Below the pieces are notes generated by a model. That model worked only from the letters and a program-made list of their open reading frames with translations. It made no database searches and was not told the DNA's origin. The position numbers and the translations under genes were made by a program. A stretch of DNA of 24,000 nt from Draconibacterium halophilum (GTDB taxonomy: Bacteria; Bacteroidota; Bacteroidia; Bacteroidales; Prolixibacteraceae), in the NCBI RefSeq assembly GCF_010448835.1, contig NZ_CP048409.1:2332037-2356036 (forward strand), in the 5' to 3' direction. This document shows positions 1,531 through 23,968 of this stretch, piece after piece (the stretch's first letter is position 1; each line of letters starts with the position of its first letter).

Positions 1531-1536
1531 AAATGA

Positions 1537-1570
1537 AATCTACGTGATATCACGTAGATTCTTTTATTTA
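1537..1570. terminator. Bidirectional hairpin terminator between convergent genes
   Basis: Perfect 24-nt palindrome AATCTACGTGAT/ATCACGTAGATT at 1537-1560. It lies between the + strand stop at 1530 and the - strand stop at 1585. TTTTATTT follows it on the + strand and an A-rich stretch (AAATGAAA) precedes it. Confidence 0.6.
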
Positions 1571-1584
1571 AAAAATAGGAGAAT

Positions 1585-2746: not shown

Positions 2747-2756
2747 ATCTATTGAT

Positions 2757-2999
2757 TTATCCTCCACTTGAGGGAGGAATTAAAAACAATGTGGTTTGGT
2801 CATTTATCGTTTCGTTTAGCGGAACAAATTTTTCGTTCACAGCAATCCGGCAGCTGGTGAGCACCTCTTTTGCTTCCGGGTTTAATTCACCCAGTTTTTC
2901 AAGTAAGTTGGCATAACTTTCTTCCGGTGCCATTTCAATGCTGGTTTCGTCGCCAAAGAACTTTTTAAGTCCTGCAAAACATACAATCTTTCTATTCAT
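2757..2999 (-). CDS. moaD: MoaD/ThiS-family sulfur carrier (molybdopterin synthase small subunit)
   Basis: 80 aa, ending in the obligatory C-terminal Gly-Gly (LIPPSSGG). It is sandwiched between moaA (stop at 3002) and moaE. Confidence 0.8.
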   Translation of the reverse strand: MNRKIVCFAGLKKFFGDETSIEMAPEESYANLLEKLGELNPEAKEVLTSCRIAVNEKFVPLNETINDQTTLFLIPPSSGG

Positions 3000-3001
3000 T
3001 T

Positions 3002-3976: not shown

Positions 3977-4220
3977 GCTTATTTAACTTTAAAAGCGCCA
4001 ATTTGTTCAGTTTATTTAGCCATTCAGGTATTTTAATAAACGCGGTTATTTTTTACTAAAAATTTTATGTCATTGATTGACTTTTTATTGAACAGTATTA
4101 ATTATTTTCTTGTTATAATGTTGGTTTATAAATATTTGGTGTATTTTTATTTAGTTAAATTCAGGTAAGTGCATTCTCTGATGGCTTTGCCCAGCGTAAC
4201 TAACCTTTAATATTTTTGAA

Positions 4221-5237
4221 ATGACGCACGAACTAAAGTTACTGTTTGACACATTAAAAAACTGGCAGCAGCAAGGTAAAAAGGCTGTATTTGTTTCGGT
4301 AGTCGATCTTGAAGGCTCATCGTACCGCCGGCCTGGTGTCAGGATGTTAATCTGCGAAGATGGTGAGTATGCAGGAGCCGTTAGCGGCGGTTGTGTTGAA
4401 AGCGAAATCGAACGTCAGGCACAAAGTGTTTTTCGCACGAATACGCCCAAAGTAATTACTTATGATGGCCGTTATCGGATTGGCTGCGAGGGGGTTATTT
4501 ATGTATTAATAGAACCCGTGTTACTATCAGAAGCTCTTTTGGGAGCTTTTGAAAGTCAGTTGAAAAGCAGGAGGGCTTTTGAAATGAATTCATTTTTTTA
4601 TTCTGAAGTAGGAGAGTACGATAAAATTGGCTCGGTACTTAATTTTAATGGTACAGAATATTCGCTGAATCCTGATTTTAAGAGTGACGAAACGGATAAC
4701 CAGAAATGTTTTTCGCAAACCTTCGAGCCTTTGTTTCAACTGTTTATATTTGGTGCTGAGCACGATGCAGTTCAGCTGAGTCAGGCTGCTAAATTGTTGG
4801 GATGGAAAGTAACGATTATCGCATCGCCTGAAGAGTCAAAATCATGTGATTATTTCCCGGGAGCAGCTTCTTTGCTTACTCCTTCTTTTGATGATATTGA
4901 TACCTCGGCCATTGATGAACAAACTGCAGTTGTTTTAATGACGCACAGTTTTAATAAAGACGTGCAATATTTAATGGCTTTAAAAGAAATCAATCCGGCC
5001 TATATTGGTTTGTTGGGGTCGGTAAATCGAAGGGAACGTGTAATTTCAATGTTACTGGAACAGATTCCCGATCTTTCGCTTGAATTTATTGAACAAATCC
5101 ATGGGCCGGCTGGAATTAATATCGGCGCTGAGAATGCTGCAGAGATATCGGTTTCTATTCTGGCAGAAATATTAAGCGTGGTACGCAAACAGAAGCCCCT
5201 GGCTTTGCGCGAAAAAGTGGGAGCAATTCATGAATAA
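4221..5237 (+). CDS. XdhC/CoxI-family molybdoenzyme maturation (accessory) protein
   Basis: N-terminal XdhC_CoxI-like block (AVFVSVVDLEGSSYRRPGVRMLICEDGEYAGAVSGGCVE). C-terminal Rossmann-like XdhC_C block (LFIFGAEHDAVQLSQAAKLLGWKVTII ... IHGPAGINIGAENAAEISVSILAEIL). It overlaps the next gene by 8 nt (ATGAATAA). Confidence 0.85.
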   Translation: MTHELKLLFDTLKNWQQQGKKAVFVSVVDLEGSSYRRPGVRMLICEDGEYAGAVSGGCVESEIERQAQSVFRTNTPKVITYDGRYRIGCEGVIYVLIEPVLLSEALLGAFESQLKSRRAFEMNSFFYSEVGEYDKIGSVLNFNGTEYSLNPDFKSDETDNQKCFSQTFEPLFQLFIFGAEHDAVQLSQAAKLLGWKVTIIASPEESKSCDYFPGAASLLTPSFDDIDTSAIDEQTAVVLMTHSFNKDVQYLMALKEINPAYIGLLGSVNRRERVISMLLEQIPDLSLEFIEQIHGPAGINIGAENAAEISVSILAEILSVVRKQKPLALREKVGAIHE

Positions 5238-5820
5238 CATTCCAATAATTTTACTTGCAGCAGGTGCTTCCCGAAGAATGGGGCAGCCCAAACAACTTCT
5301 GCCTTGGGGGGAACAAACTTTAATCGAACACCAGGTAAATATATTATTAACGACAGGTCATCCTGTGGTGGTTGTTCTGGGAAGTTGTGCAGAAGGTATC
5401 ATCCCAAAACTTAAAGACTTACCAATTAAATTCACCATGAACGAAAACTGGGAAAAGGGGATGGGAACTTCCATTGCCGCCGGAATTAAATTCGTTGAAC
5501 AACTATATCCTAATTGTAAAGGAGTGCTGATAACATTGATCGACCAACCACTTGTTACAACTACTCATTTAAACAAACTGTCTGAAACTTTTGAGCCGGA
5601 AAAACAAGAGATAATTGTATCGCAATCTGAATCGGGGTGGCAGGGCGTTCCCGTTTTATTTGACCGTTGTTACTTTGATGAGTTATCAAAATTAAATGGG
5701 AAACAGGGCGCAAAAACTGTCTTTCGGTATTATTCACAACATGTAAATGCCATACAATGTGGTGATATATTGGAAGATATGGATACGCCGGAGCAATATA
5801 ATGCGCTCAAGAATAATTGA
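5230..5820 (+). CDS. MobA-like NTP transferase, probable molybdenum cofactor cytidylyltransferase (MocA-like)
   Basis: N-terminal nucleotide-binding signature ILLAAGASRRMGQPKQLLPW. 196 aa and translationally coupled to the XdhC-like gene, the usual context of MocA-type enzymes. CTP versus GTP specificity cannot be read from the sequence by eye. Confidence 0.7.
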   Translation: MNNIPIILLAAGASRRMGQPKQLLPWGEQTLIEHQVNILLTTGHPVVVVLGSCAEGIIPKLKDLPIKFTMNENWEKGMGTSIAAGIKFVEQLYPNCKGVLITLIDQPLVTTTHLNKLSETFEPEKQEIIVSQSESGWQGVPVLFDRCYFDELSKLNGKQGAKTVFRYYSQHVNAIQCGDILEDMDTPEQYNALKNN

Positions 5821-6697: not shown

Positions 6698-7702
6698 TTA
6701 CGATTCCGGTTCTTCGCTGAATTTAAATGTTTTATACAGGTATCCCATGGCCGGGAAAATAATCAACACACCAACAACCAATGCAATCAATAGATAAAAC
6801 TGCGTTTGGTGCGGTGCTTTTGCAGCTTGTATTGTAATATCGTGACCGCTGTTTGTTTTTACCAGGACCGGAAACTGAATGGCAAACCACCCTGTTACGA
6901 GCAAGATAGTTTGGAATCCTGCCGTTAGTCGCAGCCAGTTGCCTTTGTTTTTGTTCAGAAAATACCAGAATGCGGGCAGCGCCAGCGTTGCTAAAACAAT
7001 ACAGGTTACACTTATGGAGGAGTTTATAAAGTCTTTCAATAACGAATGACCAGCAAGTTTTGCTGTTGCAAAAACAATTGATCCCATTACAACCAAAGCG
7101 ATTAGCAAACGTTTGGTCATGCGTGTGAAATAGATAATGTAGTCTTTGTCCTCTATTTCGCTAACGGTAAAAATACCTGCCAGAAATGCAAACAAAAGTA
7201 CCACAAACAAGCCCATGCTTACTGAAAACCAGTTAAGCCACGGATGGATGTATACGGCATAAAACCCAAGTTGGTAATTCATCGAGATTTCACCGAGGAT
7301 AAGTCCGCCAACGGTTACACCTAAAAAGAACGTGGTAAAAACACTGGAGAAGCGAAAAATAGCTGAATATATGGCTTTCGTAGGTTCCTCTTCAATATCG
7401 TATTGTCTGAAAGTAAAAGCTGAACCACGCATGATAATGCCAATGAGTACCAACAGAACAGGAATGTGCAATGCCGTAAGAATAGTTGAATATACCGATG
7501 GGAATCCAACAAAAAGGATTACAACCACCAGAATTAGCCAAACGTGATTGGCTTCCCAGACCGGTGCTATGGCACGCGATACAATTTTTGATGCTTTTCC
7601 ACGCGATAACAGTTCGAGAATGCCACCGCCAAAATCGGCACCTCCAAGTATAACATAAAGCAATAAACAGATAACAAGTATGATGAGATTAGCTTCAGCC
7701 AT
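6698..7702 (-). CDS. cydB: Cytochrome bd-type quinol oxidase subunit II
   Basis: 334-aa polytopic membrane protein with the CydB-like APVWEANHVWLI block. Its start overlaps the cydA stop by 8 nt (ATGGCTGA). Confidence 0.9.
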   Translation of the reverse strand: MAEANLIILVICLLLYVILGGADFGGGILELLSRGKASKIVSRAIAPVWEANHVWLILVVVILFVGFPSVYSTILTALHIPVLLVLIGIIMRGSAFTFRQYDIEEEPTKAIYSAIFRFSSVFTTFFLGVTVGGLILGEISMNYQLGFYAVYIHPWLNWFSVSMGLFVVLLFAFLAGIFTVSEIEDKDYIIYFTRMTKRLLIALVVMGSIVFATAKLAGHSLLKDFINSSISVTCIVLATLALPAFWYFLNKNKGNWLRLTAGFQTILLVTGWFAIQFPVLVKTNSGHDITIQAAKAPHQTQFYLLIALVVGVLIIFPAMGYLYKTFKFSEEPES

Positions 7703-9005
7703 TTTGCAGATATTTTGATTGTAATAGTTTAATTTGGCGGCTCAACAACCAGATAACCACAAAAGTTAATATGGCATAAACCGCAGTAATCGTATAAAAA
7801 GTATACTGTATGCCGGGCATTGGAGTTAATGAATCTTTTGTTTTCATTATGCCATAAATAATCCATGGCTGACGGCCCACTTCGGTAACGATCCAGCCGG
7901 CCTCGACAGCAATAAAACCCAGTGGCGTGGCTATGGCCAGCATACGCAGCCACCATTTTTGTTCAAACCAGTGTTTCCATTTGTAGGTTCCGGCAAAAAA
8001 CAGGGCGGCTATCAGCATTAAAAACATTCCGATTCCAACCATCAATTGAAAAGAATAATGGGTAATGGGAATAGGTGGCCATTCTTCTTCCGGAAACTCT
8101 TCCAGGCCCTTTACTTCGGCATTAAAATCGCCATGCGCCAGAAAACTCAGAAATCCGGGCAGTTTGATCGCGTATTTTACTTCGCGGTTTTCCACATCAG
8201 GAATTCCACCAATAATAAGCGGAGCTTTTTCCTGCGTTTCGAAATGCGACTCGAAAGCAGCCAGTTTTGCCGGTTGCAGTTCGGCTACGTTCTTAGCAGC
8301 CAGATCGCCACTTAAAGGTTGCAAAATAGCTGCCACCGATGCAAAAGCCAGGGCAATGGTAATGGCTTTAGCGTGAATCTCCAGTTTGTTTTTCATGTAT
8401 AAAACAGCATGCACTCCGGCCACCGCAAAACCAGTTGCCGAAAAGGCGGCTATAGTCATGTGATGAGCCTGCGAAAACCAGGCTTTGTTAAACATGGCTT
8501 TAACCGGATCGATGTTAATGGCTTGTCCATTCACCCAGTCGAAACCCGACGGAGCGTTCATCCATGCATTAGCTGAAACTACAAAAATTCCTGATAAAAC
8601 ACCGGAAATTCCAACTACCATTCCGGTGTAAAGATGTACCCATTTGTTTAGGCGTTTCCAGCCGTAAAGAAATAATCCCAGGGCAATGGCTTCTACAAAA
8701 AAAGCTGTTCCTTCCCACGAAAAAGGCATCCCGAAAATAGGTCCGGCATGCTCCATAAACGTGGGCCATAACATGCCCAGCTCAAACGATAATACAGTTC
8801 CTGAAACCGCTCCAACGGCAAAAAATATAGCTACACCTTTTGCCCATGCTTTTGCCAAATCAAGGTAAACCGGATTTTTTGTTCGCAGCCATTTCCACTC
8901 AGCAACAAACATAAACCAGGGCATTACCATTCCTATGCAGGCAAATACGATATGAAATCCTAACGAAACGGCCATTTGCATTCTGGCAGCCATAAATTCA
9001 TCCAT
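7695..9005 (-). CDS. cydA: Cytochrome bd-type quinol oxidase subunit I (short Q-loop form)
   Basis: N-terminus MAARMQMAVSLGFHIVF and the subunit-I hallmark EVGRQPWIIYG near the C-terminus. At 436 aa it is much shorter than the 522-aa E. coli CydA, consistent with the short Q-loop class. No cydX-like small ORF is present in 6589-6697. Confidence 0.9.
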   Translation of the reverse strand: MDEFMAARMQMAVSLGFHIVFACIGMVMPWFMFVAEWKWLRTKNPVYLDLAKAWAKGVAIFFAVGAVSGTVLSFELGMLWPTFMEHAGPIFGMPFSWEGTAFFVEAIALGLFLYGWKRLNKWVHLYTGMVVGISGVLSGIFVVSANAWMNAPSGFDWVNGQAINIDPVKAMFNKAWFSQAHHMTIAAFSATGFAVAGVHAVLYMKNKLEIHAKAITIALAFASVAAILQPLSGDLAAKNVAELQPAKLAAFESHFETQEKAPLIIGGIPDVENREVKYAIKLPGFLSFLAHGDFNAEVKGLEEFPEEEWPPIPITHYSFQLMVGIGMFLMLIAALFFAGTYKWKHWFEQKWWLRMLAIATPLGFIAVEAGWIVTEVGRQPWIIYGIMKTKDSLTPMPGIQYTFYTITAVYAILTFVVIWLLSRQIKLLQSKYLQNG

Positions 9006-11574: not shown

Positions 11575-12417
11575 TCAATCCGGTTTCACAAATGTATGTG
11601 CCACCCAATTATTCTTCTCCATAAATCCGGCATTGGTCAGTCCCAGCTCTTCGGCTTTTACAACTATATCCTGAATGTCCTCGGTGTAAAACCCACTCAT
11701 TATCAGTGTCCCTCGTTTTTTTAATACTGAATAATAAGTTGGCATGTCGTTCAGCAAAACATTTTTATGAATGTTGGCAAAAATCAGGTCGTATTTTTCT
11801 TCTCCGAGCAGGCTGGCATCACCCAGTTTTGCATTAATATTTGTGATCTTATTCAGCGCTGCATTTTCTTGTGTCCCCTCGTACGACCACTTGTCAATGT
11901 CGATGGCAGTAATTTGTTCGGCACCTTTCATCGATGCAAGAATACTGAGAATTCCTGTTCCGCAGCCCATATCGAGGATTGTTTTTCCTTTGAGATCATT
12001 TTGTAAAATCGACTCAATTATGGTGGCGGTTGTTTCATGGTTACCCGTGCCAAAGGCCATGTTTGGCTCAATAATAATTTCGTATTTTGTCTCGGGGTAT
12101 TCAGTGTGAAACGGAGCTCTGATCAAACATTCGCCACCGATTACCAGCGGTTTGAAATAGTTTTTTTCCCATTCTTTATTCCAGTTTTGGTCAGCAATGA
12201 ATTCCGATTCTACTACGAAAGAAAAATTATCTGAAAAAGTTTCAAGAACGGTGCTTAAGCTTTCTTCTGAATAGCTGTCCGAGGGAATAAAAGCTTCAAA
12301 TCCGGTTTGAGTTTCAATAAAACTATCAAAACCAACTTCCGCTAGTTGAGCATTTAAAACGTCGCGTAACCACTCCTGGAAAGGAGTAATTTGTATGCTT
12401 ATTTTTAGGTAATCCAT
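11575..12417 (-). CDS. prmA: Ribosomal protein L11 methyltransferase PrmA
   Basis: PrmA N-domain (ISIQITPFQEW ... GFEAFI), SAM-binding motif ILDMGCGTGILSI and the FANI motif (DLIFANIHKNVL). Start set at the ATG at 12417 (MDYLKISI); the 20 upstream codons look like a spurious extension. Confidence 0.85.
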   Translation of the reverse strand: MDYLKISIQITPFQEWLRDVLNAQLAEVGFDSFIETQTGFEAFIPSDSYSEESLSTVLETFSDNFSFVVESEFIADQNWNKEWEKNYFKPLVIGGECLIRAPFHTEYPETKYEIIIEPNMAFGTGNHETTATIIESILQNDLKGKTILDMGCGTGILSILASMKGAEQITAIDIDKWSYEGTQENAALNKITNINAKLGDASLLGEEKYDLIFANIHKNVLLNDMPTYYSVLKKRGTLIMSGFYTEDIQDIVVKAEELGLTNAGFMEKNNWVAHTFVKPD

Positions 12418-12488
12418 TGGTACGGTATTTCGCGCGAAGGTATAAAAAAACGGCCACGGGAGAGTTGCTGACTGCACAACTCATTTTT

Positions 12489-13724
12489 TTAATCAATAAA
12501 TTTATTTGGAAATACGTTTACGGCGATAAAACCAAAAATTCCGCATATCCCAATTAGAAGTAAATCAATAAGCTGGGTTTTTATTTTTTTCTTTCGTTTT
12601 CTGATAATCAGGAATTGAGTAATGATGAGTAAAAAGCAAATTATTAGCCAACTAAAAGATTTATTTGTGCTGACAAAGAAATTTATATAACCTGAGTTGC
12701 TGTCGGTCATTTTAAGTTGAGCAGGGAAAAGCAATTGTGCAATTTGACCCTCGGTTCGCTCAGTTTTTGTTTGCCAGGTTTCTGAATATTCGTCAACTTT
12801 TTTATAGTCTCTGTTCAGTACCTGAGTTCTGATAAAACCGTCGCCAATGGTTGTTACATTAAAATTAAAATAATCGCCGTAAATTCTGACTTCATATTTA
12901 TCCGGATTAATATTATCTGCATCAAATCTCTCCAGCAGATAATCGTATTGTGTTAGCACAAACAACTGGTTATTTTCGGTAAATAGATAAGCATAATAGA
13001 GCTTGTCGCTAAAATCGACACTCTGGATGGTTTTTAATTTCATCCCTTCCGGTAGTTCAACTTGGCGAACAAAAGGTAAACCCTTTTGCATTTTAATATG
13101 GAAAAGCTGGTCGGCTGAATCGATAACAAAATAACCTTCGTCGCACGATTTACGAGTGGTTGGAATTCCGTTTATTGATTTTGCCGGAAACTGAAAACCA
13201 CGTTTATAAAGTACTGCCGAGAACATCCGGCTTTTTTCCTCATGTATTTTATTTGTTTTGGCATCAATAAACTCCATGCGCCAGGTAATGCGAAAAAAAT
13301 CGTCGGGCATATTGAGGTTTGCACGGCCCGATTGCGATTCAAACAAAGGAAATAGTTTGGGTTTTGGGGCATGAATTTCTTCCGGTTTTACCCTGAATGA
13401 AGACCGAAAAGTGCTGGCATGTTGAATATTGATTTTTAGGCCATTTACGGAATCAGGCATTGATCCATTCATAACCAGCTGTTGCGTATACATTAGTGGT
13501 AATTTCTTTTCATACACGTCACGTGACAATACTTTTCCCTCCGAGTTTGACCATTTTGATTCTTCGCCCGAACGAAAGATCATAAAATCATGATCAATGC
13601 AGCTATATTGAATAAACGGGGGTCTGACGGGTTTTTCAAATGCCATCCAATACAGTTTTGGCAGCACAATTGACAAACCTACAATGGCTAAAAAAACTAA
13701 AATATATCTGCTGATTTTTACCAT
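12489..13724 (-). CDS. Bitopic membrane protein with a large periplasmic domain (resembles DUF4857); last gene of the envelope cluster
   Basis: Start set at the ATG at 13724 (MVKISRYILVFLAIVGLSIVLP), 1 nt after the stop of the upstream permease gene. It has one N-terminal TM helix, a soluble region of about 330 aa, and two C-terminal TM helices (WLIICFLLIITQFLII and LIDLLLIGICGIFGFIAV). Size and topology match my recollection of DUF4857; this has not been verified by HMM. Confidence 0.6.
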   Translation of the reverse strand: MVKISRYILVFLAIVGLSIVLPKLYWMAFEKPVRPPFIQYSCIDHDFMIFRSGEESKWSNSEGKVLSRDVYEKKLPLMYTQQLVMNGSMPDSVNGLKINIQHASTFRSSFRVKPEEIHAPKPKLFPLFESQSGRANLNMPDDFFRITWRMEFIDAKTNKIHEEKSRMFSAVLYKRGFQFPAKSINGIPTTRKSCDEGYFVIDSADQLFHIKMQKGLPFVRQVELPEGMKLKTIQSVDFSDKLYYAYLFTENNQLFVLTQYDYLLERFDADNINPDKYEVRIYGDYFNFNVTTIGDGFIRTQVLNRDYKKVDEYSETWQTKTERTEGQIAQLLFPAQLKMTDSNSGYINFFVSTNKSFSWLIICFLLIITQFLIIRKRKKKIKTQLIDLLLIGICGIFGFIAVNVFPNKFID

Positions 13725-13725
13725 A

Positions 13726-14400
13726 TTACATTTCTCCTTTTCTGAACCGGTATCCCGAAAACAACAATACAAATGATAAAAGAACAGCGAAGACAATTAA
13801 CAGCGGCAGGGCGGGGTAATAAGCTCCTGTTGTGGCGGTTTGAAGATAAATGGGGACGAAAGTTGCAGCCACTAACAGGTATAGAAAACGATATTTCCAT
13901 ACCGGCTCCAAAACGATTAAAGCGGTGAAAAAATAAACTACAAATCCACACAAAAACCAGGGCGCCACAGAAATTAACGAAGCTTGAATGATCTCAGCAG
14001 GAAAATAAGCCAAACTCAGTGCGGCAAACAGCAGAACGATAACTGTACCAATCGCGAACAGGCAAAATGCACCGAACAGGATCATAATCAGCAGCACTTT
14101 GTTTTCATTAACAGGTAAATGAAATGTGAGCTTAATTCGTTTGTTAACGGTCTCCGGAAAATATTGGGCTAAGGCAATTGCCAGCCCTCCGGCAACAGGT
14201 ACAAATTTGAACAAACTGTAGGCAAAGAATTGATGCCCTTGGAAAAGGATGCTATACCAATAGTTTGCTGTTTCGTTAAACACAAAATCGTGCTGAACTT
14301 TTAGAAATATATTTCCAACGACTAAAACGCCGAGTGCTGCATAAATAGTTGTAACCCATCTGATTTTTAGCCATTCTTTATATATAATCGATTTCCACAT
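13726..14400 (-). CDS. ABC-2-type transporter permease (six predicted TM helices)
   Basis: 224-aa hydrophobic protein. It starts with an ABC-2-like KEWLKIRW block and contains AQYFPETVNKRIKLTFHLPVNE. That block resembles the E-x-x-x-G-T-hydrophobic-L-L-x-x-P motif of ABC-2/GldF-type permeases. It begins 4 nt after the ABC ATPase stop. Confidence 0.6.
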   Translation of the reverse strand: MWKSIIYKEWLKIRWVTTIYAALGVLVVGNIFLKVQHDFVFNETANYWYSILFQGHQFFAYSLFKFVPVAGGLAIALAQYFPETVNKRIKLTFHLPVNENKVLLIMILFGAFCLFAIGTVIVLLFAALSLAYFPAEIIQASLISVAPWFLCGFVVYFFTALIVLEPVWKYRFLYLLVAATFVPIYLQTATTGAYYPALPLLIVFAVLLSFVLLFSGYRFRKGEM

Positions 14401-14404
14401 TTTG

Positions 14405-15289
14405 CTAATATTTTCCGGTTAATCCAATAAATGCATCTTCCAGTCCCATTTCAATTTTTTGAAAGTTTTTGTGCGCAATCCCATTGTTTTTCAAGAAGTT
14501 CAGAATCCTATCTTCCGATTCGTAAGTGTAGAGTTCAATTTTATTATTTACTTTCTCAATATTACTTACAAAGTCTTCTCCCGAAAGATCGATAGACGGA
14601 TTTTCAAGCTCCAGGTAAAACTGTTTAAATTCCTGCATAAACGAATTTACATTGCGTTGCGCCAACACTGTGTTAAAATCCATAATTAGCAGATCATCGA
14701 TCAGGCGTTCCATATCCTGGATAATATGTGAAGTGGTGAAAATGGTTTTGTTTTTAGCTTTGGCATATTCGCGTAAGTAATCGATAAACAAACGGCGGTA
14801 CCCGGGATCGAGGCCCATCGAAAAATCGTCGAGGATAAGCAAATCGGGATCTTGTGCCAAAATAAGCCCAAGCGCTACTTGCGAACGCTGCCCACACGAC
14901 ATGGTAGATATTTTTTGCTTTGGCGAAACCTGAAGTTTCGACATTAATTGCCAGTAGGGTTCGTTATCCCATTTAGGGTAGAATTTCGAGTAAAATTTCT
15001 CGATCTGATGGATGTTCATAAATGCATATTGAACGTGTCCTTCAATAAGAAAACCTATTCGGGCTTTGTTCTCCGGCGAAAGATGTTGTGTGTTCTCGCC
15101 ATAAATCAGGCATTCGCCACTTTGCGGCTGCAAAAATCCATTTAGGATATTAATAGTGGTTGTTTTTCCGGTGCCATTTTTCCCCAGCAGCCCCAATATA
15201 CTTCCACTCTGAACGTTAAAATTCAGGTTTTCGTAAACCAGCTTTTTGCCGTAATAGTGGGTTAGGTTTTTACATTCAATTGCGTTCAT
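14405..15289 (-). CDS. ABC transporter ATP-binding protein with divergent catalytic motifs
   Basis: Walker A GKNGTGKTT, signature-like MSCGQR, Walker B LLILDD, and an H-loop TTSHII. A C-terminal extension of about 80 aa resembles those of ABC-2/GldA-type ATPases. Confidence 0.9.
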   Translation of the reverse strand: MNAIECKNLTHYYGKKLVYENLNFNVQSGSILGLLGKNGTGKTTTINILNGFLQPQSGECLIYGENTQHLSPENKARIGFLIEGHVQYAFMNIHQIEKFYSKFYPKWDNEPYWQLMSKLQVSPKQKISTMSCGQRSQVALGLILAQDPDLLILDDFSMGLDPGYRRLFIDYLREYAKAKNKTIFTTSHIIQDMERLIDDLLIMDFNTVLAQRNVNSFMQEFKQFYLELENPSIDLSGEDFVSNIEKVNNKIELYTYESEDRILNFLKNNGIAHKNFQKIEMGLEDAFIGLTGKY

Positions 15290-15306
15290 CTTATTCTGAT
15301 TAGCAG

Positions 15307-16877
15307 TTACTGGAACATAAATCCAAGTTTTATAGTTAAAATTCCATTTTCTTCATTCGAATGCGATACTTGCTGATATTGGTATACAATTCGTAAAAAA
15401 AGTTCGTCAATATTTTCCGATTTTGACAATTTGTAACCCCAATTTACCTGGGTAGCAATATTGAAATAATCGGCTGTATCGATTTCAAAATCGCGGATAT
15501 AAAGTTGTTTGTTTTGTCGACGGGTAATTGTTTCGTCGTTTGAAAGATTAAGCTCCTGATCAAAAGTGTAACGATATTTCAGTCTAATCTCAGGGGCAAA
15601 ACGAAATTTCCCAAAGTAAAAGTTCTTTTCAAAATTTACTCCCAGTTCAATATTTGAATAGTTGGCATTAAAAATCTCAGGAATGTAATAATACTTTTCG
15701 GTGTTTAACTTTAAACGAGAGAATACCGAACTTTCCCAGTTTATTTGTTCGTAGTCGTAAAGTTTTAAATAGTTAAATCTCACGCAGGTGTTAAATCTCT
15801 TCTGATTAAGTTTTAGGTTTTTTGATAAGGTAATGTATTCAGTAGAATTATCATCATTTAAAATAGCATCTTGTATATATTCAATTCCGTCTGCATTAAA
15901 AAACGATGTGTTAAAGGTAATTTTTTGAATCGTATTATTGGTCTGTTTGGTAAGCTGTTGATTTAGTTCAACTTCAAAAGTTTTCCAATCGCCGGCATCT
16001 TCTTTTTTAATTGTATTTGATCCGTCCTCCGTTGTTTCCTTGCCGTATGTTCCTCTAATTTCTGTTAACGACCGAAATCCGAGTAATTTAGTGTCATACT
16101 GTGCTCCCGCTGATAAACTGTTATGATTGTAAAATCGCGATTTTGATTGTCCTGTTTCTGAAGTAAAAAATCCCATTCCTTTAAACATAAAATATGTAGG
16201 ATCAGGATCATCTAATACTACTTGTTTATAATCAATATCTTCTTTTCGATTTCGGTAAGCCAGATCTATACCAAGATTACTGTTTGAAATAGGTATAATA
16301 ATTGATGGACGCAGTGAAAAATCGGAAACGAGTGTGCGAGGGCGCGGATCTTTTTGTTTTGCACTTTTTCCAATGTGGTAATCAGCTATTAATCCAACCG
16401 AAAGTTTATTGCTAAGTTTTGTTGCAATACCCCCGAAAGCTGAAAACTTTCTTTGTGAATGTTAGCACCAGGAATCGAATCTCCGATAATATATGGATTT
16501 TCTCTGTAGGGATTAAAAAGCCCGGTATATAAATTCCCCGTTTCATCACTGTTTTGGTACGCAAATTTTCCATAATAATGAATTTTATTTACTACCAGGT
16601 AACTTTCGGAATAAAGTGAGTAGTTTTCCAAATGTGTCGCCTCCCGCACCTTTCGGAAATCTCCATCTGACAATTTATATTCCCCGAAAACTTCACCAAT
16701 GTTTTCGTTGGAGTTAAAAGTTAAGCCAGCCAAATTTCCACTGTTAAGCCAATGGTTTTTTAGTTTGAAAAGTTTTAATGAATTGAATGTACTATCCTTT
16801 GGTGTGTTATTTGCCAAAATCCTTTCTGTAGTAAAAAAGGATAAAGTCAGAATAAAAACAATCTTAAGTTTAGTCAT
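15307..16877 (-). pseudogene. Predicted outer-membrane beta-barrel protein (resembles DUF6850), interrupted by a frameshift near 16430-16434
   Basis: The N-terminal ORF runs 16877 down to 16389 (MTKLKIVFILTLSFFTTERILA signal peptide; the track start at 16904 is a GTG). The C-terminal frame is open from 16461 down to the stop at 15307. I translated 16189-16461 by hand: HSQRKFSAFGGIATKLSNKLSVGLIADYHIGKSAKQKDPRPRTLVSDFSLRPSIIIPISNSNLGIDLAYRNRKEDIDYKQVVLDDPDPTYF, running into MFKGMGFF. Adding one nt to the C5 run at 16430-16434 joins them as ...KESFQLSGGIATKLSNK... into a protein of about 523 aa. That protein has alternating beta-strand patterns and ends KLGFMFQ. Confidence 0.65.
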
Positions 16878-16941
16878 CTCAAGCAAAACATTTATAGTAC
16901 CCACCTTTTGTAATGGCAGGCGATTTCTATTGTTTCTGAGT

Positions 16942-18162
16942 TTATTCTTCTAAACTTGTAGGATGTATTCCTGGAGTTGGAACTAAATCATGCAAAAAAT
17001 CCTCTGAAGAATTATTGGTGTCTTTATAAATTACGCGGCTACCTATAATCATTTTTGCTTTACGTCGAACGGATAATGATGAATAAGTGCCCGCCTCTAT
17101 ATAGGTATAACCTGCATCCAACTCAACAGGAAGACGCTTATAAATATCATCTCTGTCAACACGAGCACATTCAACAGCATCAATAACAAATTCTCTGTCA
17201 ATCATGAGGTACTCAGTAGACGAAGAACTTCCTGGTTTTGTCATAAAATTACCGGTATCAGAAACGTAGCTTTCCCAATCATTATTAGGGAGTCGGAAAA
17301 GAACTTCTGCAGGGCCGAAAACTGAAGTCGACCAATCGTGCATGGCAGTATTCGTTGTATATATCATAGTGAGGTTTGGTACTGCAGAAGCATCCAAATC
17401 TTTGCCTGAAGATTCAACATAAGTCTCCCAATTGGCATCTCCAAGATTAACAGGTGAATTTGGATTTCCATTTTCATCGGTTCGATGATCGATACCATCA
17501 AGAGCAATTACAAAACTTTCACCAGGGAAAACAGGGTATTCGGTGCCATCACCCGGTACTATCCATGTATGAAAAGTTAAAGGTATTCTATCAAGTAATT
17601 CATCATTGTCGTCAACCCAGCTGGTAAGTGTTGAGGTTGAGGTTTGGGCATGGACTGCAATGCATAATCCATCAGCATATAGCGTATCTCCCGAGTTGTT
17701 ATATATTTCATGAAACTGATCGGAGTAATAAAATTTATCTTCAGGTGTTCTTGAACCGGAATAATAGATTTCTTTAAATATGAACCCACCGGTATTATCT
17801 ACCAAAATCAAATTCATTGCTATATCCGATTCTGCCATTAAAGAATAGTTAGATATTATTCCGTTAAAAATGTATTCCTCCCCATCGGTGCCAATAACAG
17901 AAAAGCTTGCTGTAAAATTATAATTTCCTTCAACCAGTTCAAAAATGGCGTTACCATCAGAAGTTGCTGTTACTGAAGTGGTTCTTGTGTTATTTGTGTT
18001 GGTAGCTGTAACAGTAACATTCTCTGGGAAATCTGCTACAGTAAATCCTTCAGGGTAACCTACCTTTACCGTAGTTATATAGCTGGGAGTAACATCATCT
18101 TTGCAGTTTGTTAGCAATAAACACATTAACAAGGATATGGTTATAAGTACAAATTTTCTCAT
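16942..18162 (-). CDS. Surface-exposed lipoprotein (resembles DUF4876)
   Basis: Signal peptide plus lipobox (MRKFVLITISLLMCLLLTNC) followed by KDD. It has an N-terminal Ig/carboxypeptidase-regulatory-like stretch (VTVTATNTNNTRTTSVTATSDGNAIFELVEGNYNFTASF) and then a larger beta-rich domain. Its 406-aa size and its position right after a TonB-dependent receptor match my recollection of DUF4876; not verified. Confidence 0.7.
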   Translation of the reverse strand: MRKFVLITISLLMCLLLTNCKDDVTPSYITTVKVGYPEGFTVADFPENVTVTATNTNNTRTTSVTATSDGNAIFELVEGNYNFTASFSVIGTDGEEYIFNGIISNYSLMAESDIAMNLILVDNTGGFIFKEIYYSGSRTPEDKFYYSDQFHEIYNNSGDTLYADGLCIAVHAQTSTSTLTSWVDDNDELLDRIPLTFHTWIVPGDGTEYPVFPGESFVIALDGIDHRTDENGNPNSPVNLGDANWETYVESSGKDLDASAVPNLTMIYTTNTAMHDWSTSVFGPAEVLFRLPNNDWESYVSDTGNFMTKPGSSSSTEYLMIDREFVIDAVECARVDRDDIYKRLPVELDAGYTYIEAGTYSSLSVRRKAKMIIGSRVIYKDTNNSSEDFLHDLVPTPGIHPTSLEE

Positions 18163-18190
18163 GATATAAATTATAAATCGGTTTAAATAT

Positions 18191-21054
18191 TTACAAACTA
18201 AATGTTAGGTTTGCTCCGAAGTAGGCAATTTGGTTTAATCTGGCATAGGTGCCGCTTCGTTTCACTTTATATAATGGCCGGTGATTAAACAGGTTGTATG
18301 CAAAAAACGACAACTTCGCAAATTTTCCAAATTCCTTGGTTAATTTTAAATTGAGTTGCCAGGTTATCGGATACGATTCCTCGTCATAAAAATCATCATC
18401 TTGCTTTTCTACCATAGTTGAGTAGGGGCTTCATACGAATACTTATCCTGCCATTTGTGGTAATCCATATCCATGTCATAAAAACCTACCGGATCCACAT
18501 AAATGATTTCCCCAGCAGAAAATTGGCCGTATAGCTTTTCGTTTTTCTCGCCTCTGGTATAGGCAGCAGGTGTTCCGGATTCGTTTTCCCAAAAATTTTC
18601 AAACTTATTCATCCAAATTGTTTGAAGGTTGAGTGAAAAAATCATTTTGAGTTTAGGAATATGGGTGATGGTTTGGATGTTGGAATTTAAACGTTGCGTA
18701 ATAATGCCAGAGTTTCCCGGCAAAACAGAAAGATATGGATAATAGTCTCCCTGGTACGATGAAGTTATCCTTTCCAAAAACGGTACAGCATGCCTGGATC
18801 TTTTTATGTGATAATAAGCACCGTCAACCATCAACTCTGTTTTTATCGGATTTATACGACCAAAGTTAATAACATATTCAATTCCTTTCTTGTCGACGCT
18901 ATAGTTATTTATCGGTGACTTGTATCTTTCGAATTCATTTTCCTGCCCATAAGGCAATATTCGGATGTCTCCATTCTCCTCGTAGGTAATTTCTCCGTTA
19001 TCAAAAACCGGTAAGAATCCCTTTCCCAAATCATCCCATTTTCGGTAATTTATTGAAAAGTATTGGTATTCCCAGCTGTAGCCATTTCTGATTCTCTCGC
19101 TAAATCCGGTAACAATAAATTTTATGCCTTTAATGTTGAAGTCGGCTCCCAATTCATATTTTTTATTTGACATTGGTTTTAAGCTCGGATTGCTGGTGTC
19201 TTCAATAACTTCTGTTGTTGAAACAATTAATTCCGGTGAGTAATTAAAACTCAGTTTGTCAATATAAGCGGCATCCGGATACATGTGCAACATAGTAGGT
19301 GTTTTTGATGTTTTTCCGAAGCCACCTCGGAGTGTAAGGTTGCGAAGTATTCTTTTTGTGTCGTTATCTGTTATTTTGTAGGCGACATTTATTCTTGGTT
19401 CCAGAGCGTTAAATCCATTGGTAGAGAAGATCCCTTTTGGAAGGAAATTGTTGTAGCGTATCCCTATTTGAGCTTCCAGGTTGTTAGTGCCAATTGGCAG
19501 GTTTATTCTATCTTCGGCAAAAAGAGCCAGTTTTTTGCTTGCCGGAATATCTTTAAATGCACGGGGCCGGGTTTCAATTGCATTTCTTGGCGGCCGGGTT
19601 AGGTCGTACAGCCTGCCTTCTCCATTATTGCCTGAAACCCGCCAGTCAAAACCATACAATACTTTGTGGCTCATTTTTCCAATTTTCCATCTTGAATCGA
19701 GTTTAATTGTTGCAAAATAATTGTAAGGTTTACCATCAACGTTTAGTTCGGAATAATAACTCGATGGTAAAATATTTACAGCATATTCTCCTGCTAAGTA
19801 GCTTGTTGGGATGGGAGTAGCAGAAGTGGTATTTAATGTATAGTTGTAAAAGTTCTGCTGTTTAAAGCTACCCGATAAGTTATAAGATAAGTTGCCAAGC
19901 CACCATTTTTGAAGCGACCATTTTCCGTAAATTTTCAAATCTAAACCAGATTCTCTTTCGCGCTGACGTTCCAGTTTTCGCTGGTCCGGATCTTTCTTTT
20001 CGTCATCAAGTGTGCGAAAATAATTTCCCTTAAAATTTATACTTAAGGGATTATGTTTCTTAAAAAGGGTATTTGAGTAGCCAAATTGTCCGTTTATTCT
20101 TTTATAAATACTTGCAGGTTCTCTCAAATCATCATATGAATGGGTATAGTCAAATTCAATATTTACAGCTCCTTTGTTTTCACCTTCAAGCAAAAATCCT
20201 TTGGAAATTGCGACTTGTTTAATTTTTGGGTCGGTTTTCACTTTTCCTTTAAGAGGCGTTTTTCCTGATTTTGTTTTTATCAGCACTACACCAGTTGTTA
20301 AATCGCCGTATTGTACTGATGGAATTCCCCGGATAACTTCTACGGATTCGATAAAATCCGTTGATATTTGACGAATATCTATTCCGCCTCCAGCTGTGGA
20401 ATATGCATTTGATTGACCTTGTGTGGTTGTATTTACTGATTGCATATTTGCATCATTGTCCATTGGTGTTCCATCAATAATAATTGCAGTTCCTAAAGCA
20501 TCATTGGAATTAGCTGGTCTGGTTCTGTCTTCTCCCGAGTAGGTGTTTATATCCCTGATTGTTATTTGATTGGCCTTTGACAAATCGGGATTTAAAGAAA
20601 TCTGGCCGGGAGCCAACTGCATAATATCGGAAAGACTTGTAGGCTGTGAATGTTCAATCGCAACATTCTCGATGGTTGAAGATGAACTTAAACTGGTATT
20701 CTCCCGGGCTACAACAGTTATTTCATTCAATCCGAGAGAGCTAACCTCCATAGATATATTGTAGCTCGCAATATTTCGTTTAATTTCAACTGGTTTCTCG
20801 TACCTTTCGTAACCTAAGCACGAAGCTTGTATCGTATATATTCCTTCTGGAATATCATCAAAATTAAACTCACCATTTAAATCCGATGTTGTCCATCGAT
20901 TTAGCTCCAATAATTGTATGGCAACTAAACCTATTTGGTCTTTGGTTTCGATGTGCTCAACCACTCCGGAAAAATTATAAGTATTTTGAGCAAACAGATA
21001 TAAAGGTAGTGTTGTAATTACCAGGGAAATTATATGCTTTAAAAATTGGTTCAT
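18191..21054 (-). pseudogene. TonB-dependent receptor with N-terminal CarboxypepD_reg-like domain, interrupted by a frameshift near 18425-18428
   Basis: The 881-aa ORF 18409-21054 has a signal peptide, a CarboxypepD_reg-like domain (FSGVVEHIETKDQIGLVAIQLLE ... GIYTIQASCLGYE) and a TonB-box-like EITVVA. It also has a plug (IESVEVIRGIPSVQYGDLTTGVVLIKTK) and a long barrel. The last barrel strands (PITWQLNLKLTKEFGKFAKLSFFAYNLFN ... YFGANLTFSL) lie in another frame, in ORF 18191-18415, which is open up to 18430. One extra nt in the G4 run at 18425-18428 (C4 on the coding strand) fuses them as ...YEAPYSTMVEKQDDDFYDEESYPITW... Confidence 0.85.
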
Positions 21055-21302
21055 ATGTTCACTCGAAAACGACTCTTTTACTCTGTTCTTTTAATACCAC
21101 TTCATTATTGTTTTAATTGTGGAATTTCCTGTTTTTGCAATAAAATTTTAAATATAGTCAATATTTGAGGTCAACGATTTGTTTACGTACAATTTGAGAA
21201 TATACGTCTTCTAAAAAGAATTGTAGAAAGATGATGAGGTAATTGTAAGGTTAAATTTATTTACTGAGAAAAAGCAGGGAGATTTTCAAATTAAAACAGG
21301 GT

Positions 21303-21737
21303 TTAGTTATCCTGTTGGTAAATATTCATCTTTTCAAGTGCCTCAATTGCTTCATCGATCGAAAGATAAAGGTCACCTTCTTTTTCGTCCCATACCTGGC
21401 CTTTGTTTATTCCTCTTAAACTGCAATCTATTGTTTCATTCAGAATTACCGTTTCAATGGCTTTCATTTTTACCGAATTTTCGTCTATTTGAACCACTTT
21501 GGCTTTAACGGGTTTCCCTTTCACCGGTTTATCATTTTTAGTTACCTGAATAACCAAACCATAGCAAATTCTCCCTTCTTCTACCCACACCGGAATCTTT
21601 GCTTTTAAGGAATCGCTCATTTCTACTTTTTTCTCACTGTAGGTGTATGAGGCTATTTCTTCCGATTTTTTTGAAGAATCACAACTGATAATGCCTATTG
21701 AGGTTAACAGACCAACAAATAATACCAGTTTTTTCAT
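21303..21737 (-). CDS. Small lipoprotein of unknown function
   Basis: Signal peptide with lipobox Cys (MKKLVLFVGLLTSIGIISC), 144 aa, Lys-rich and beta-rich middle region. No recognisable family motif. Confidence 0.55.
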   Translation of the reverse strand: MKKLVLFVGLLTSIGIISCDSSKKSEEIASYTYSEKKVEMSDSLKAKIPVWVEEGRICYGLVIQVTKNDKPVKGKPVKAKVVQIDENSVKMKAIETVILNETIDCSLRGINKGQVWDEKEGDLYLSIDEAIEALEKMNIYQQDN

Positions 21738-21877: not shown

Positions 21878-21915
21878 AAAAAAGCCATTTCCTAACTGAG
21901 GAGGAAATGGCTTTT
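21878..21915 (-). terminator. Rho-independent terminator of tpiA
   Basis: 13-bp perfect inverted repeat, AAAAGCCATTTCC (21880-21892) and GGAAATGGCTTTT (21903-21915), with a 10-nt loop. It starts 25 nt downstream of the tpiA stop. On the minus-strand transcript the GC-containing stem is followed by a run of six U. Confidence 0.75.
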
Positions 21916-21939: not shown

Positions 21940-22698
21940 CTAGAATCCGTTGATGATTCCAATAAAGTCTTCAGCTTTTAATGAAGCACCACCAATTAAA
22001 CCACCGTCAACATCTTTGTTGGCGAATAATTCTTTTGCGTTGCTTGGTTTACAGCTACCACCGTAAAGAATCGAAGTTCCTTCAGCAACTTCCTCGCCAA
22101 ATTTGGCCGTAATTGCAGCGCGAATATTAGCGTGCATATCCTGAGCCTGGTCAGAACTTGCAGTAACACCTGTGCCAATTGCCCAGATTGGCTCGTAAGC
22201 AATAACGATTTTCTTGAAATCGTCGGCTGACAGTTGGAAAACTGTTTCTTCCAATTGGTTTACAACATATTCGTTGTGTGTGCCTGCTTCGCGAATATCC
22301 AAAGCTTCACCACAGCAATAAATCGGAGTTAATCCGTTTTCTAACGTAAGGGCTACTTTTTTATTAAGAATTTCACTTGTTTCACCGTAGTATTCACGAC
22401 GCTCAGAGTGACCTAAAATAACATATTCGGCACCGGTTGATTTTACCATTTCAGCAGAAACTTCACCTGTGTAAGCTCCTTTGGCTTCAGCAGCACAGTT
22501 TTGAGCTGATACACCAATTCTGTCAGTATTAACTGTTTCAACTACTTTTGTAATGTGTGTAAATGGTGTTCCCAATACAACAACTACATCGTTAGCACCT
22601 TCGCTCGCTACAATGGCGTCAACAGCTTTTGCCAACTCAACACCTTCTTGCAAGGTGGTGTTACATTTCCAGTTTCCTGCAACTATTTTTTGTCTCAT
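21940..22698 (-). CDS. tpiA: Triosephosphate isomerase
   Basis: Canonical TIM blocks: [16 protein letters not shown], the active-site [11 protein letters not shown], and ILYGGS ... [10 protein letters not shown]. 252 aa. Confidence 0.95.
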
Positions 22699-22837: not shown

Positions 22838-23968
22838 TTATTCGTTTATAAACTCGCTTTCAATTTCTTGCGGAGTTGGAATATCATTGTAATGCCATTT
22901 TCCCAGAATCGTTCCGTCTTTCATTACAATCAAGCCCGGGTTGGAACGAATCATTGTTTTTAAGGTAATTTCGTCAGCATTAAAGAATTCGTAAGGAGCC
23001 TGATTTTTTTCAGCAAATTGCATCGCTTCGTCTTGCAAAGTTGAGGTAAGGCAAATAAACGAATACCCCTGATCCATTGCCCAATGCGCCAATGCATTTA
23101 TTTTGTCCTGCGATTTAGTGCTGGTTTTATGCAGATCGTAGGCCACCAATATAAAAACATAATTCTCGTCGTAAATAAAAAAGTCTTTTATATCATCTCC
23201 TTCGGGCGATTCAATTATAAAATTATGAATTGGTGGTTCATAGCCCTCCTGCACCAAGTTTGATTCCATGTCGTGATATTCCCAGTTTACAGTGTCTTGC
23301 CACGGGTAGTTGTCTTCGGTGAATTCTTTCACCTCGCCGCTGTTTTTGTTTTTATAGTAGAATATATTCTCATAGATTTCCTGTGGTGCATCATCGGGGA
23401 TACTCATTGCTTCAGGAATATTGGTACCCACTTTATAAGGTCTGAAATCAAAAATTGGTAGATGATTGTACGAATAGAAAACAATACCAAAATAAACGAT
23501 AAAAACACCAATACTCATAATGGCCGGTACTTTGCTTTTTACTTTGTCGGCAAACCAGTTGCGGTTAGCTACAACAATAATGGCCAGCACAATAAATACC
23601 AGGTTTTTATAAAATGTTTCCCAGTTTGAAATTACCAGTGCATCGCCAAAACAGCCGCAGTCGGTTACCGGGTTTTTTAGTGCGATCCAAAGGGTAAGCG
23701 GCGTAAAAAAGACCATAAATGCCAGCCCCAGCCACGAAAATAGGCGCATCCGCCAGTTAAATAAAAAGGCTACACCAATGGCAAACTCGGCAAAAGCCAG
23801 GAGAACGCCCAGCGGAAAAGCTGCCCAAAGCATCCAATCCAGACCCATGGCATTAAAGTAGTCGGTAAATTTGTAGGCCGAACCCCAGGGATCAATTCCC
23901 TTTACAAATCCAGAAAAAATAAAAACAATACCAAAAAGAATTCGGGCGAGCTGTTTTACAATATTCAT
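22838..23968 (-). CDS. MauE/DoxX-like membrane domain fused to a thioredoxin-fold (TlpA-like) domain lacking CxxC
   Basis: The N-terminal 170 aa or so form four to five TM helices with the MauE-type DCGCFG motif (codons 23651-23659). The C-terminal 190 aa or so show a thioredoxin-like pattern (YVFILVAYD ... FICLTS ... NPGLIVMKDGTILGKW), with no Cys pair where CxxC would sit. Confidence 0.7.
   Translation of the reverse strand: MNIVKQLARILFGIVFIFSGFVKGIDPWGSAYKFTDYFNAMGLDWMLWAAFPLGVLLAFAEFAIGVAFLFNWRMRLFSWLGLAFMVFFTPLTLWIALKNPVTDCGCFGDALVISNWETFYKNLVFIVLAIIVVANRNWFADKVKSKVPAIMSIGVFIVYFGIVFYSYNHLPIFDFRPYKVGTNIPEAMSIPDDAPQEIYENIFYYKNKNSGEVKEFTEDNYPWQDTVNWEYHDMESNLVQEGYEPPIHNFIIESPEGDDIKDFFIYDENYVFILVAYDLHKTSTKSQDKINALAHWAMDQGYSFICLTSTLQDEAMQFAEKNQAPYEFFNADEITLKTMIRSNPGLIVMKDGTILGKWHYNDIPTPQEIESEFINE

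Follow-up and report, generated by a model that had tools for sequence, protein, structure and literature searches.

Two gene clusters of Bacteroidota, BT3625-33 of Bacteroides thetaiotaomicron and PG1019-22 of Porphyromonas gingivalis, are reported to be among the loci most strongly induced in iron chelation or haem limitation (PMC10434189, PMC10470040, PMC13096392). BT3625-33, which encodes a DUF4857 protein, a hypothetical protein, an ATP-binding cassette (ABC) ATPase, two PepSY-TM proteins, a lipoprotein of the fimbrillin family, two DUF4876 proteins and a receptor, rises 37-128-fold in 150 uM dipyridyl, with co-induction of all nine genes, and was named a putative fimbrillin locus by the authors; PG1019-22 rises 21-214-fold in the same study (PMC10434189). 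In addition, the P. gingivalis DUF4876 gene was listed beside hmuY, with a log2 value of -5.4, in a hemin-availability comparison (PMC10470040), and PG1019/PG1020 was still termed an uncharacterised transport system in 2026 (PMC13096392). DUF4876 lipoproteins have been modelled with AlphaFold-Multimer as lids on BT1939 and BT3633, and DUF4876-receptor pairs are adjacent in 59-81 genera (bioRxiv 10.1101/2023.03.17.533168). With respect to DUF4857, PMC10434189 was the sole paper found that names the family, and locus-tag queries added nothing. Here, we describe a related cluster (12489-21054, minus strand) in a 24,000-nucleotide (nt) stretch of DNA from Draconibacterium halophilum (Prolixibacteraceae, Bacteroidota), the whole of which is referred to below as the window. 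In this cluster, genes for a TonB-dependent receptor, a DUF4876 lipoprotein and a DUF6850 protein are followed by genes for an ABC ATPase, a small permease and a DUF4857 protein.

An initial annotation of this DNA, made from the sequence alone, had called the cluster the best candidate for an undescribed system. It is true that no function has been defined experimentally, but the iron and haem induction of the counterparts, the DUF4876 lid model and a solved structure of the DUF4876 family (4Q1Z) had already been reported. The known part of the system is covered by expression and lid-prediction studies, and what is atypical is an ABC-2 inner-membrane partner of a TonB-dependent acquisition locus.

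The cluster is composed of two co-evolving modules, an outer-membrane trio (receptor, DUF4876 and DUF6850) and an inner-membrane trio (ATPase, permease and DUF4857). Its conservation was analysed in 80 loci with DUF4857 relatives (42-76% identity, one genome per species), mostly from Prolixibacteraceae, other Bacteroidales or Marinilabiliales; co-occurrence of the six families was counted in the 51 loci having full 10-kilobase flanks. The initial annotation had made its proposal depend on synteny in other genomes, and the linkage is indeed retained: all six families were found by open reading frame (ORF) clustering in 46 of the 51 loci, and tblastn recovered the gene missed by ORF clustering in 4 of the remaining 5. 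In the last one (L047), no receptor was found by tblastn, probably since the locus ends before the receptor. The ATPase, permease and DUF4857 genes are always adjacent and always in that order in the related loci, with median gaps of 4 nt between ATPase and permease and 1 nt between permease and DUF4857. In the commonest order, which is also that of the window, the receptor, DUF4876 and DUF6850 genes lie directly upstream of the ATPase gene. Variant orders place the outer trio downstream of DUF4857 or insert a gene for a HEAT-repeat lipoprotein-like protein of 723 amino acids (aa) between DUF6850 and the ATPase gene (this protein is found in 15 loci, L024 6215-8428 and 14 others), and, with the addition of regulators, at least four architectures can be distinguished. 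Since the linkage survives these rearrangements, a functional tie between the genes is indicated. Sequence identity to a reference co-varies within each trio, with Spearman correlations of 0.61-0.76 for the outer and 0.74-0.84 for the inner one, and does so much less between the two (0.24-0.58).

The separability of the two modules can be seen in D. mangrovi (L002, 2857-8251), compared with L001, L003-L006 and the window: its inner trio shares 84-91% identity with the reference, its outer trio only 26-38%, and an outer-membrane cassette appears to have been exchanged there on a stable inner-membrane chassis. The earlier description of the cluster as a hard-wired trans-envelope machine therefore needs qualification: the linkage is kept through rearrangements, but the halves are separable co-evolving modules.

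All six minus-strand genes were present where the initial annotation had placed them, and the gaps computed from their coordinates, from receptor to DUF4857, are 28, 64, 17, 4 and 1 nt, in agreement with the spacing of 1-64 nt that it gave (Table 1). It had also likened three of the products to the families DUF4876, DUF6850 and DUF4857, and all three are borne out by Pfam with scores above the gathering thresholds; the two halves of the DUF6850 gene product score 75.9 and 105.4 bits against a threshold of 27.

Table 1. Features of the cluster and its upstream region, in window coordinates
Feature	Position	Strand	Remarks
Terminator-like hairpin after tpiA	21880..21915	-	14-bp stem, then T-run; upstream boundary of the unit
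144-aa lipoprotein gene ('LIPO143')	21303..21737	-	Lipobox Cys19
Conserved non-coding block, promoter-like	21143..21179	-	About 90-120 nt 5' of the receptor start codon
TonB-dependent receptor, ~954 aa after frame correction	18191..21054	-	Pfam CarbopepD_reg_2 6e-14, Plug 2.9e-10
DUF4876 lipoprotein, putatively on the surface, 406 aa	16942..18162	-	Pfam 5e-46, 157.5 bits (cut-off 27.9)
DUF6850 protein, ~523 aa after frame correction	15307..16877	-	Both halves match Pfam (4.8e-21, 5.3e-30)
ABC ATPase, 294 aa, ABC-2/ABCA-like class	14405..15289	-	ABC_tran 9.3e-23
Six-helix permease, 224 aa, predicted ABC-2 (type V-like) fold	13726..14400	-	AlphaFold2 model and Foldseek
DUF4857 protein, 411 aa	12489..13724	-	Pfam 3e-78, 263.2 bits (cut-off 25)

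Within the inner trio, the best NCBIfam models of the ATPase are PmtA, GldA, DrrA and NodI, all of them far under their cut-offs, and its nearest solved sequences are the nucleotide-binding domains of ABCA3/4/1/7, 4YER and MlaF. The window permease has no Pfam or NCBIfam match and none in the ABC2_membrane families even at an E-value of 10, and two of its homologues score 26.0 and 21.6 bits against ABC2_membrane_4, under the cut-off of 27. Its AlphaFold2 model contains six helices, with a predicted local distance difference test (pLDDT) value of 76 and a predicted template modelling (pTM) score of 0.78. The top Foldseek matches of this model in the PDB are CcmB (8ce1_B), PmtCD (9q1y) and NosY (7o0y_E), with template modelling (TM) scores of 0.45-0.57; NosY is the best by TM score (0.57, probability 0.99), and LptF and ABCG25 rank lower. 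The model suggests an ABC-2 (type V-like) fold for the permease. The label 'ABC-2-type' given to this protein at the outset is thus supported by the predicted fold and by these sub-threshold matches of two homologues. The permease family is small and uniform, comprising 473 clusters (50% identity) in a set of 1.84 billion proteins.

The AlphaFold2 model of the DUF4857 protein (pLDDT 76, pTM 0.70) has one helix at the N-terminus and two at the C-terminus, with a beta-rich periplasmic domain of about 330 aa between them, which is the topology described in the initial annotation. Its only structural matches are weak and partial ones to beta-propellers (TM about 0.25). The protein has no other Pfam match, and sequence-profile searches of the PDB gave nothing for either DUF4857 or the permease. 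The 411-aa start at 13724 is backed by homologues and by the invariant residues M1, S5, R6 and Y7, and the 385-aa start used by NCBI would remove the conserved N-terminal membrane helix. Natural single-chain fusions of permease and DUF4857 (P0291, 663 aa; P0374, 659 aa) are good evidence that these two proteins work in one complex, and the ATPase, permease and DUF4857 are predicted to form one complex together. The inner trio is not a binding-protein-dependent importer, and neither a periplasmic binding protein nor a FecCD-type permease is found in the window or in the 80 related loci.

As for the outer trio, the receptor gave only sub-threshold matches to haem and siderophore receptor models (27.6 bits for the window receptor and 50.9 bits for its intact homologue in L001 against the TonB-hemin model, whose cut-off is 316.85) and no match to SusC (TIGR04056). 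The DUF4876 protein matches PDB 4Q1Z, which has been solved but is functionally unannotated, at an E-value of 1.1e-65. From the lipobox Cys onward, its sequence begins CKDDV, an acidic export-signal-like motif; acidic residues after this Cys are common across the DUF4876 family and fit the surface-export signal of Bacteroidota. The DUF4876 lipoprotein is probably surface-exposed and, in line with the published AlphaFold-Multimer models, is a putative lid of the receptor. The DUF6850 protein is a probable outer-membrane beta-barrel, because it combines a signal peptide, beta-amphipathic periodicity (the ratio of beta to alpha amphipathic moments is 1.40, the same as that of the receptor) and a C-terminal aromatic signal, the terminal Phe being invariant in a 69-sequence DUF6850 alignment in which relatives end G-x-x-F. 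No sequence relative was found by a profile search of the PDB, and there is no match to DUF560/Slam or other barrel families. These features, among them the beta-barrel-like periodicity noticed at first, are indirect evidence of a barrel.

Two of the six genes are interrupted in this genome: the lengths of about 960 aa for the receptor and 523 aa for DUF6850 in the initial annotation hold after frame correction, but both genes are frameshifted. Compared with L001, the receptor has a 1-nt deletion at about 18425-18429, which yields ORFs of 881 and 74 aa (GAAGC-CCCT, versus GAAGCTCCTT in the intact relative, adjoining a C4 run), and DUF6850 has a 1-nt deletion at about 16430-16435, which yields ORFs of 171 and 293 aa (TTTC-GGGGG, versus CTCAGGGGG in the intact relative, adjoining a G5 run). 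In the relative with both genes unbroken, the receptor has 932 aa and DUF6850 has 524 aa. The C-terminal DUF6850 fragment is annotated in the deposited genome as a separate 289-aa protein. The DUF6850 of the window ends FMFQ (15307-15312), with an extra Gln after the Phe with which the sequences of the five closest relatives end. None of the remaining window genes shows a visible break, and both frameshifts of the window fall within the cluster. The ratio of nonsynonymous to synonymous substitution rates (dN/dS) relative to the related locus is 0.045-0.19 across all six genes; for the receptor it is 0.11 before and 0.07 after the frameshift, and for DUF6850 it is 0.19 downstream of the frameshift. 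Such low values on both sides of the shifts imply that the lesions are either recent or sequencing errors, and pseudogene decay as the main story was rejected on the same grounds.

Our tentative preference, held with somewhat less than even confidence, is that the cluster encodes a two-module envelope system of Bacteroidota that acquires a scarce metal-bearing nutrient, and that its inner-membrane part faces the periplasm and acts on cargo delivered by the receptor. The link to metal is suggested by the induction of the counterparts in iron or haem limitation, by the receptor/lid pair and by the repeated presence of reductase-type partners, which are PepSY proteins in Bacteroides and a NapH-like polyferredoxin in Prolixibacteraceae; the extracytoplasmic function (ECF) sigma factor and the sub-threshold Metal_resist-like protein of the extended variants also speak for it. 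The cargo is most likely iron, chelated or haem-like. For the substrate, the direction of action and the contact between the modules, we infer the following course. The receptor, with DUF4876 as its cap and the DUF6850 barrel alongside, would import the cargo as far as the periplasm; by analogy with NosDFY or CcmAB, hydrolysis of ATP on the cytoplasmic side would then move the periplasmic domain of DUF4857; and this domain would take over or process the cargo, for example by handing the metal to a reductase or transporter or by removing the stripped carrier. A periplasm-facing role is favoured because the nearest structural analogues, NosFY and CcmAB, drive the hand-over of copper or haem in the periplasm with ATP and do not use it for transport of a solute through the membrane. 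A more far-reaching proposal, about which we are rather doubtful, is that the ATPase, permease and DUF4857 represent an unrecognised class of periplasm-facing ABC machine that is an obligatory inner-membrane partner of a family of lidded TonB-dependent receptors. It would then be the first ABC-2 importer of bacteria or, alternatively, an ATP-driven relay resembling NosDFY that strips or passes on the iron or haem brought by the receptor, and the interchangeable outer cassettes would set the specificity.

A number of observations weigh against the preferred reading. Dipyridyl binds other metals besides iron, and the expression data all come from the counterparts in B. thetaiotaomicron and P. 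gingivalis. Upstream of the receptor, a Fur box could not be convincingly identified, a mismatch search in this AT-rich DNA giving noise only. The permease matches in Foldseek have weak E-values (0.14-1.4), and structure searches with the DUF4857 model returned no confident neighbour. In P. gingivalis and at BT1938-39, the receptor and DUF4876 genes are found without an accompanying inner trio, which indicates that the modules are not obligatorily coupled. In addition, with receptor and DUF6850 frameshifted, the system may be inactive in this genome. Finally, a screen of 519 conditions revealed no fitness phenotype for BT3632 or BT3633 (bioRxiv 10.1101/2023.03.17.533168).

Several other explanations have to be weighed against an acquisition system with a periplasm-facing inner module. 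The exporter type of the ATPase and permease, together with the constant presence of a second outer-membrane barrel, would be compatible with a cycle in which a ferric chelate is imported, a reductase (PepSY or polyferredoxin in relatives, and one encoded elsewhere in this genome) frees the iron, and the ABC-2/DUF4857 complex expels the empty carrier with DUF6850 as its exit, comparable to FpvA and PvdRT-OpmQ in Pseudomonas. We regard such recycling as unlikely. The reductase-type partners in B. thetaiotaomicron and in the extended variants would suit it, as would the identity correlations of DUF6850, which are 0.61-0.64 with the outer module and 0.48-0.58 with the inner one. However, none of the 81 loci carries carrier biosynthesis genes, the DUF4857 model is compact with no obvious periplasm-spanning adaptor, and no homology to MacB, membrane-fusion proteins or TolC-type components was found. 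The same inner trio might instead work as an unconventional importer, carrying the cargo over the inner membrane with the DUF4857 domain as a tethered receptor in place of a soluble binding protein, according to the logic of YbtPQ and IrtAB, in which exporter folds import siderophores. This is somewhat less probable again: the locus is of the TonB-dependent, iron-limitation type in which an importer would be expected, the minimal cluster holds no other inner-membrane transporter, and in some organisms the permease and the tethered periplasmic domain form a single chain; but YbtPQ and IrtAB have a type IV rather than a type V fold, the repeated occurrence of reductase partners points to release of the metal in the periplasm, and no bacterial ABC-2 (type V) system is known to import.

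A role in envelope assembly, in which DUF6850, perhaps with the inner trio, places DUF4876 on the surface or assembles the receptor complex in the manner of Slam or Lol/Lpt, is improbable in our view. Slam proteins are encoded beside receptor-lipoprotein pairs of the TbpA/TbpB type, and the combination of receptor, lipoprotein and extra barrel mirrors such Slam-linked loci; moreover, DUF6850 co-varies with receptor and lid, and LptF is among the weaker fold matches of the permease. Against this, DUF4876 carries the generic acidic export signal of Bacteroidota, which serves thousands of lipoproteins that have no barrel dedicated to them, DUF6850 matches neither DUF560/Slam nor any barrel family, and BT3625-33 as annotated lists no DUF6850. 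It could also be argued that the cluster is a chance neighbourhood of two unrelated operons or a decaying relic in this genome, considering the two frameshifts, the DUF6850 Phe that is no longer terminal and the existence of the outer pair alone in other species. We give this very little credence: the linkage is kept in essentially all of the 51 loci, even where the module order is inverted or genes are inserted, all nine BT3625-33 genes are co-induced, and dN/dS is well under 1, including downstream of both frameshifts.

If the preferred two-module reading is correct, it concerns a step of nutrient uptake that is largely obscure for many TonB-dependent receptors of Bacteroidota other than SusC, namely the fate of their cargo at the inner membrane. 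The cluster suggests a route without a soluble binding protein, in which an ABC-2 complex of the exporter type would carry a tethered periplasmic domain of its own. The strong induction of the counterparts in iron or haem limitation implies that the mechanism bears on nutritional immunity in the gut and the periodontal pocket. BT3625-33 in B. thetaiotaomicron is genetically tractable, and the exchanged outer-membrane cassettes provide a natural experiment from which specificity could be studied.

With regard to its boundaries, the cluster is flanked on the minus strand by tpiA (21940-22698) and prmA (11575-12477). A 376-aa MauE/DoxX membrane protein gene lies upstream of tpiA. Between tpiA and the receptor gene is a gene for a 144-aa lipoprotein, homologues of which head the cluster at its 5' end in 23 related loci. 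The six-gene unit of the initial annotation is therefore correct as to its six genes but probably incomplete, this conserved gene being a probable seventh member. The 144-aa lipoprotein has no acidic surface-export signal after its Cys and hence probably faces the periplasm; no Pfam or PDB relative was found for it, and its conserved residues are W51, C58, Y59, G60, E95, W116 and E118.

The conserved non-coding block between this gene and the receptor is probably a promoter, judging from its sequence. The pattern AATCG...AATATTGAyTATATTTAAAATTT is invariant in 6 Draconibacterium loci, and the block overlaps the best promoter-like match (TTGACC-18-TAAAAT, at 21174-21145). An assignment of the block as a Fur box was rejected, as it matches the classical box at 11/19 bases, judged by eye, its conservation is limited to close relatives, and the mismatch search mentioned above gave noise.

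Additional genes accompany the cluster in a number of relatives. In 35 loci, a gene for a 790-aa BNR/Asp-box repeat protein lies upstream of the receptor (e.g., L002 306-2723), and a possible type IX secretion tail of this protein was detected at sub-threshold level only. A membrane polyferredoxin of the NapH/MauN/NosR type (640-665 aa) is encoded in 15 loci (L011, 3845-5776; L077, 6378-8375; L013, L014, L036-38, L047, L049, L059, L064, L075 and L079-81); it contains five membrane helices, two CX3CP motifs and a 2x[4Fe-4S] segment, and its C-terminal domain of about 310 aa faces the outside. An HMA-like domain in this polyferredoxin scored an E-value of 0.2 and is not claimed. In 11 loci, an ECF sigma factor gene is followed by genes for a single-helix protein, which has a sub-threshold match to Metal_resist (LTXXQ), and for a small membrane protein, and these three genes often precede the polyferredoxin in extended clusters. 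The statement that no sigma/anti-sigma pair is present is thus true of the window, but these 11 related loci hold an ECF sigma factor within the cluster.

Elsewhere in the window, a molybdenum-cofactor neighbourhood at 25-5820 comprises a partial molybdopterin-binding oxidoreductase (25-1530), MoeB/ThiF-like, MoaE, MoaD/ThiS-like, MoaA, XdhC and a MobA-like transferase. Genes for cytochrome bd oxidase (cydAB) are present at 6698-9005 and the MauE/DoxX gene mentioned above at 22838-23968, and the synteny prmA-PLD-metallophosphatase-ABM-histidine phosphatase-cydAB is kept across Draconibacterium and Maribellus.

When compared with known systems, the gene set conforms to none of the described Bacteroidota paradigms, as had been noted from the sequence: no hidden Markov model (HMM) or structure search assigns it to a characterised system, whether of the siderophore, haem, vitamin, gliding or Sus type. 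Membership of the SusCD, Hmu, Xus, Btu, Fhu/Fec, Nos and Gld systems was rejected by HMM in each case. Pfam and NCBIfam searches of the window ORFs likewise agree with the initial annotation in finding no SusD, binding protein or Hmu genes; no window ORF has a SusD match in Pfam, as a SusC/SusD locus would require, and HmuY-like, HmuR and HmuS chelatase-like domains were not found either. The NosD domain, NosZ and NosL are absent from the window and the related loci.

Among ABC systems, NosDFY resembles the inner trio in combining an ATPase and an ABC-2 permease with a dedicated periplasmic partner, in that case for the delivery of copper to nitrous oxide reductase together with NosL, NosR and NosA. 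NosA, a TonB-dependent receptor, accompanies some nos clusters, and extended variants of the present cluster hold a NapH/NosR-type polyferredoxin and a small periplasm-facing lipoprotein. However, NosD is a beta-helix protein, whereas DUF4857 is predicted to be beta-rich with three membrane helices, and the sequence similarity of NosF and NosY to the cluster proteins is not significant; only the predicted permease fold resembles NosY. CcmAB(CD) is an ABC-2-type machine that acts on a haem-carrying periplasmic partner rather than transporting a solute, and CcmB is the top Foldseek match of the permease, but that match has an E-value of 0.14, the CcmA model scores far under its cut-off, and the cluster has no CcmC, CcmD or CcmE homologues. 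In GldAFG, as in the inner trio, an ATPase and an ABC-2 permease are accompanied by a protein whose terminal helices enclose a large periplasmic domain. The GldA model ranks second among the NCBIfam matches of the cluster ATPase and aligns over its full length, but with 125.6 bits against a cut-off of 402.6; in addition, DUF4857 has no GldG-family match, and the cluster is tied to a TonB-dependent receptor and not to gliding genes.

The closest likenesses are found among receptor loci of Bacteroidota. BT3625-33, the nearest described counterpart, resembles the cluster in the co-regulation of DUF4857, a small hypothetical membrane protein, the ATPase, DUF4876 and the receptor; by published annotation, it differs in that two PepSY-TM proteins, a second DUF4876 protein and BT3630, a lipoprotein of the fimbrillin family, are encoded as well, and no DUF6850 protein is listed for it (PMC10434189). 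PG1019-PG1020 and BT1938-BT1939 share the receptor/DUF4876 pair and its strong induction by iron or haem limitation, but no ABC/permease/DUF4857 trio has been reported alongside them. XusABC and other lidded non-SusC receptors of Bacteroides likewise have a lipoprotein lid and belong to an iron-limitation regulon. In XusABC, the lid is a DUF4374 protein and the inner-membrane partner is a single PepSY reductase, whereas the cluster described here combines a DUF4876 lipoprotein with a predicted ABC-2 complex.

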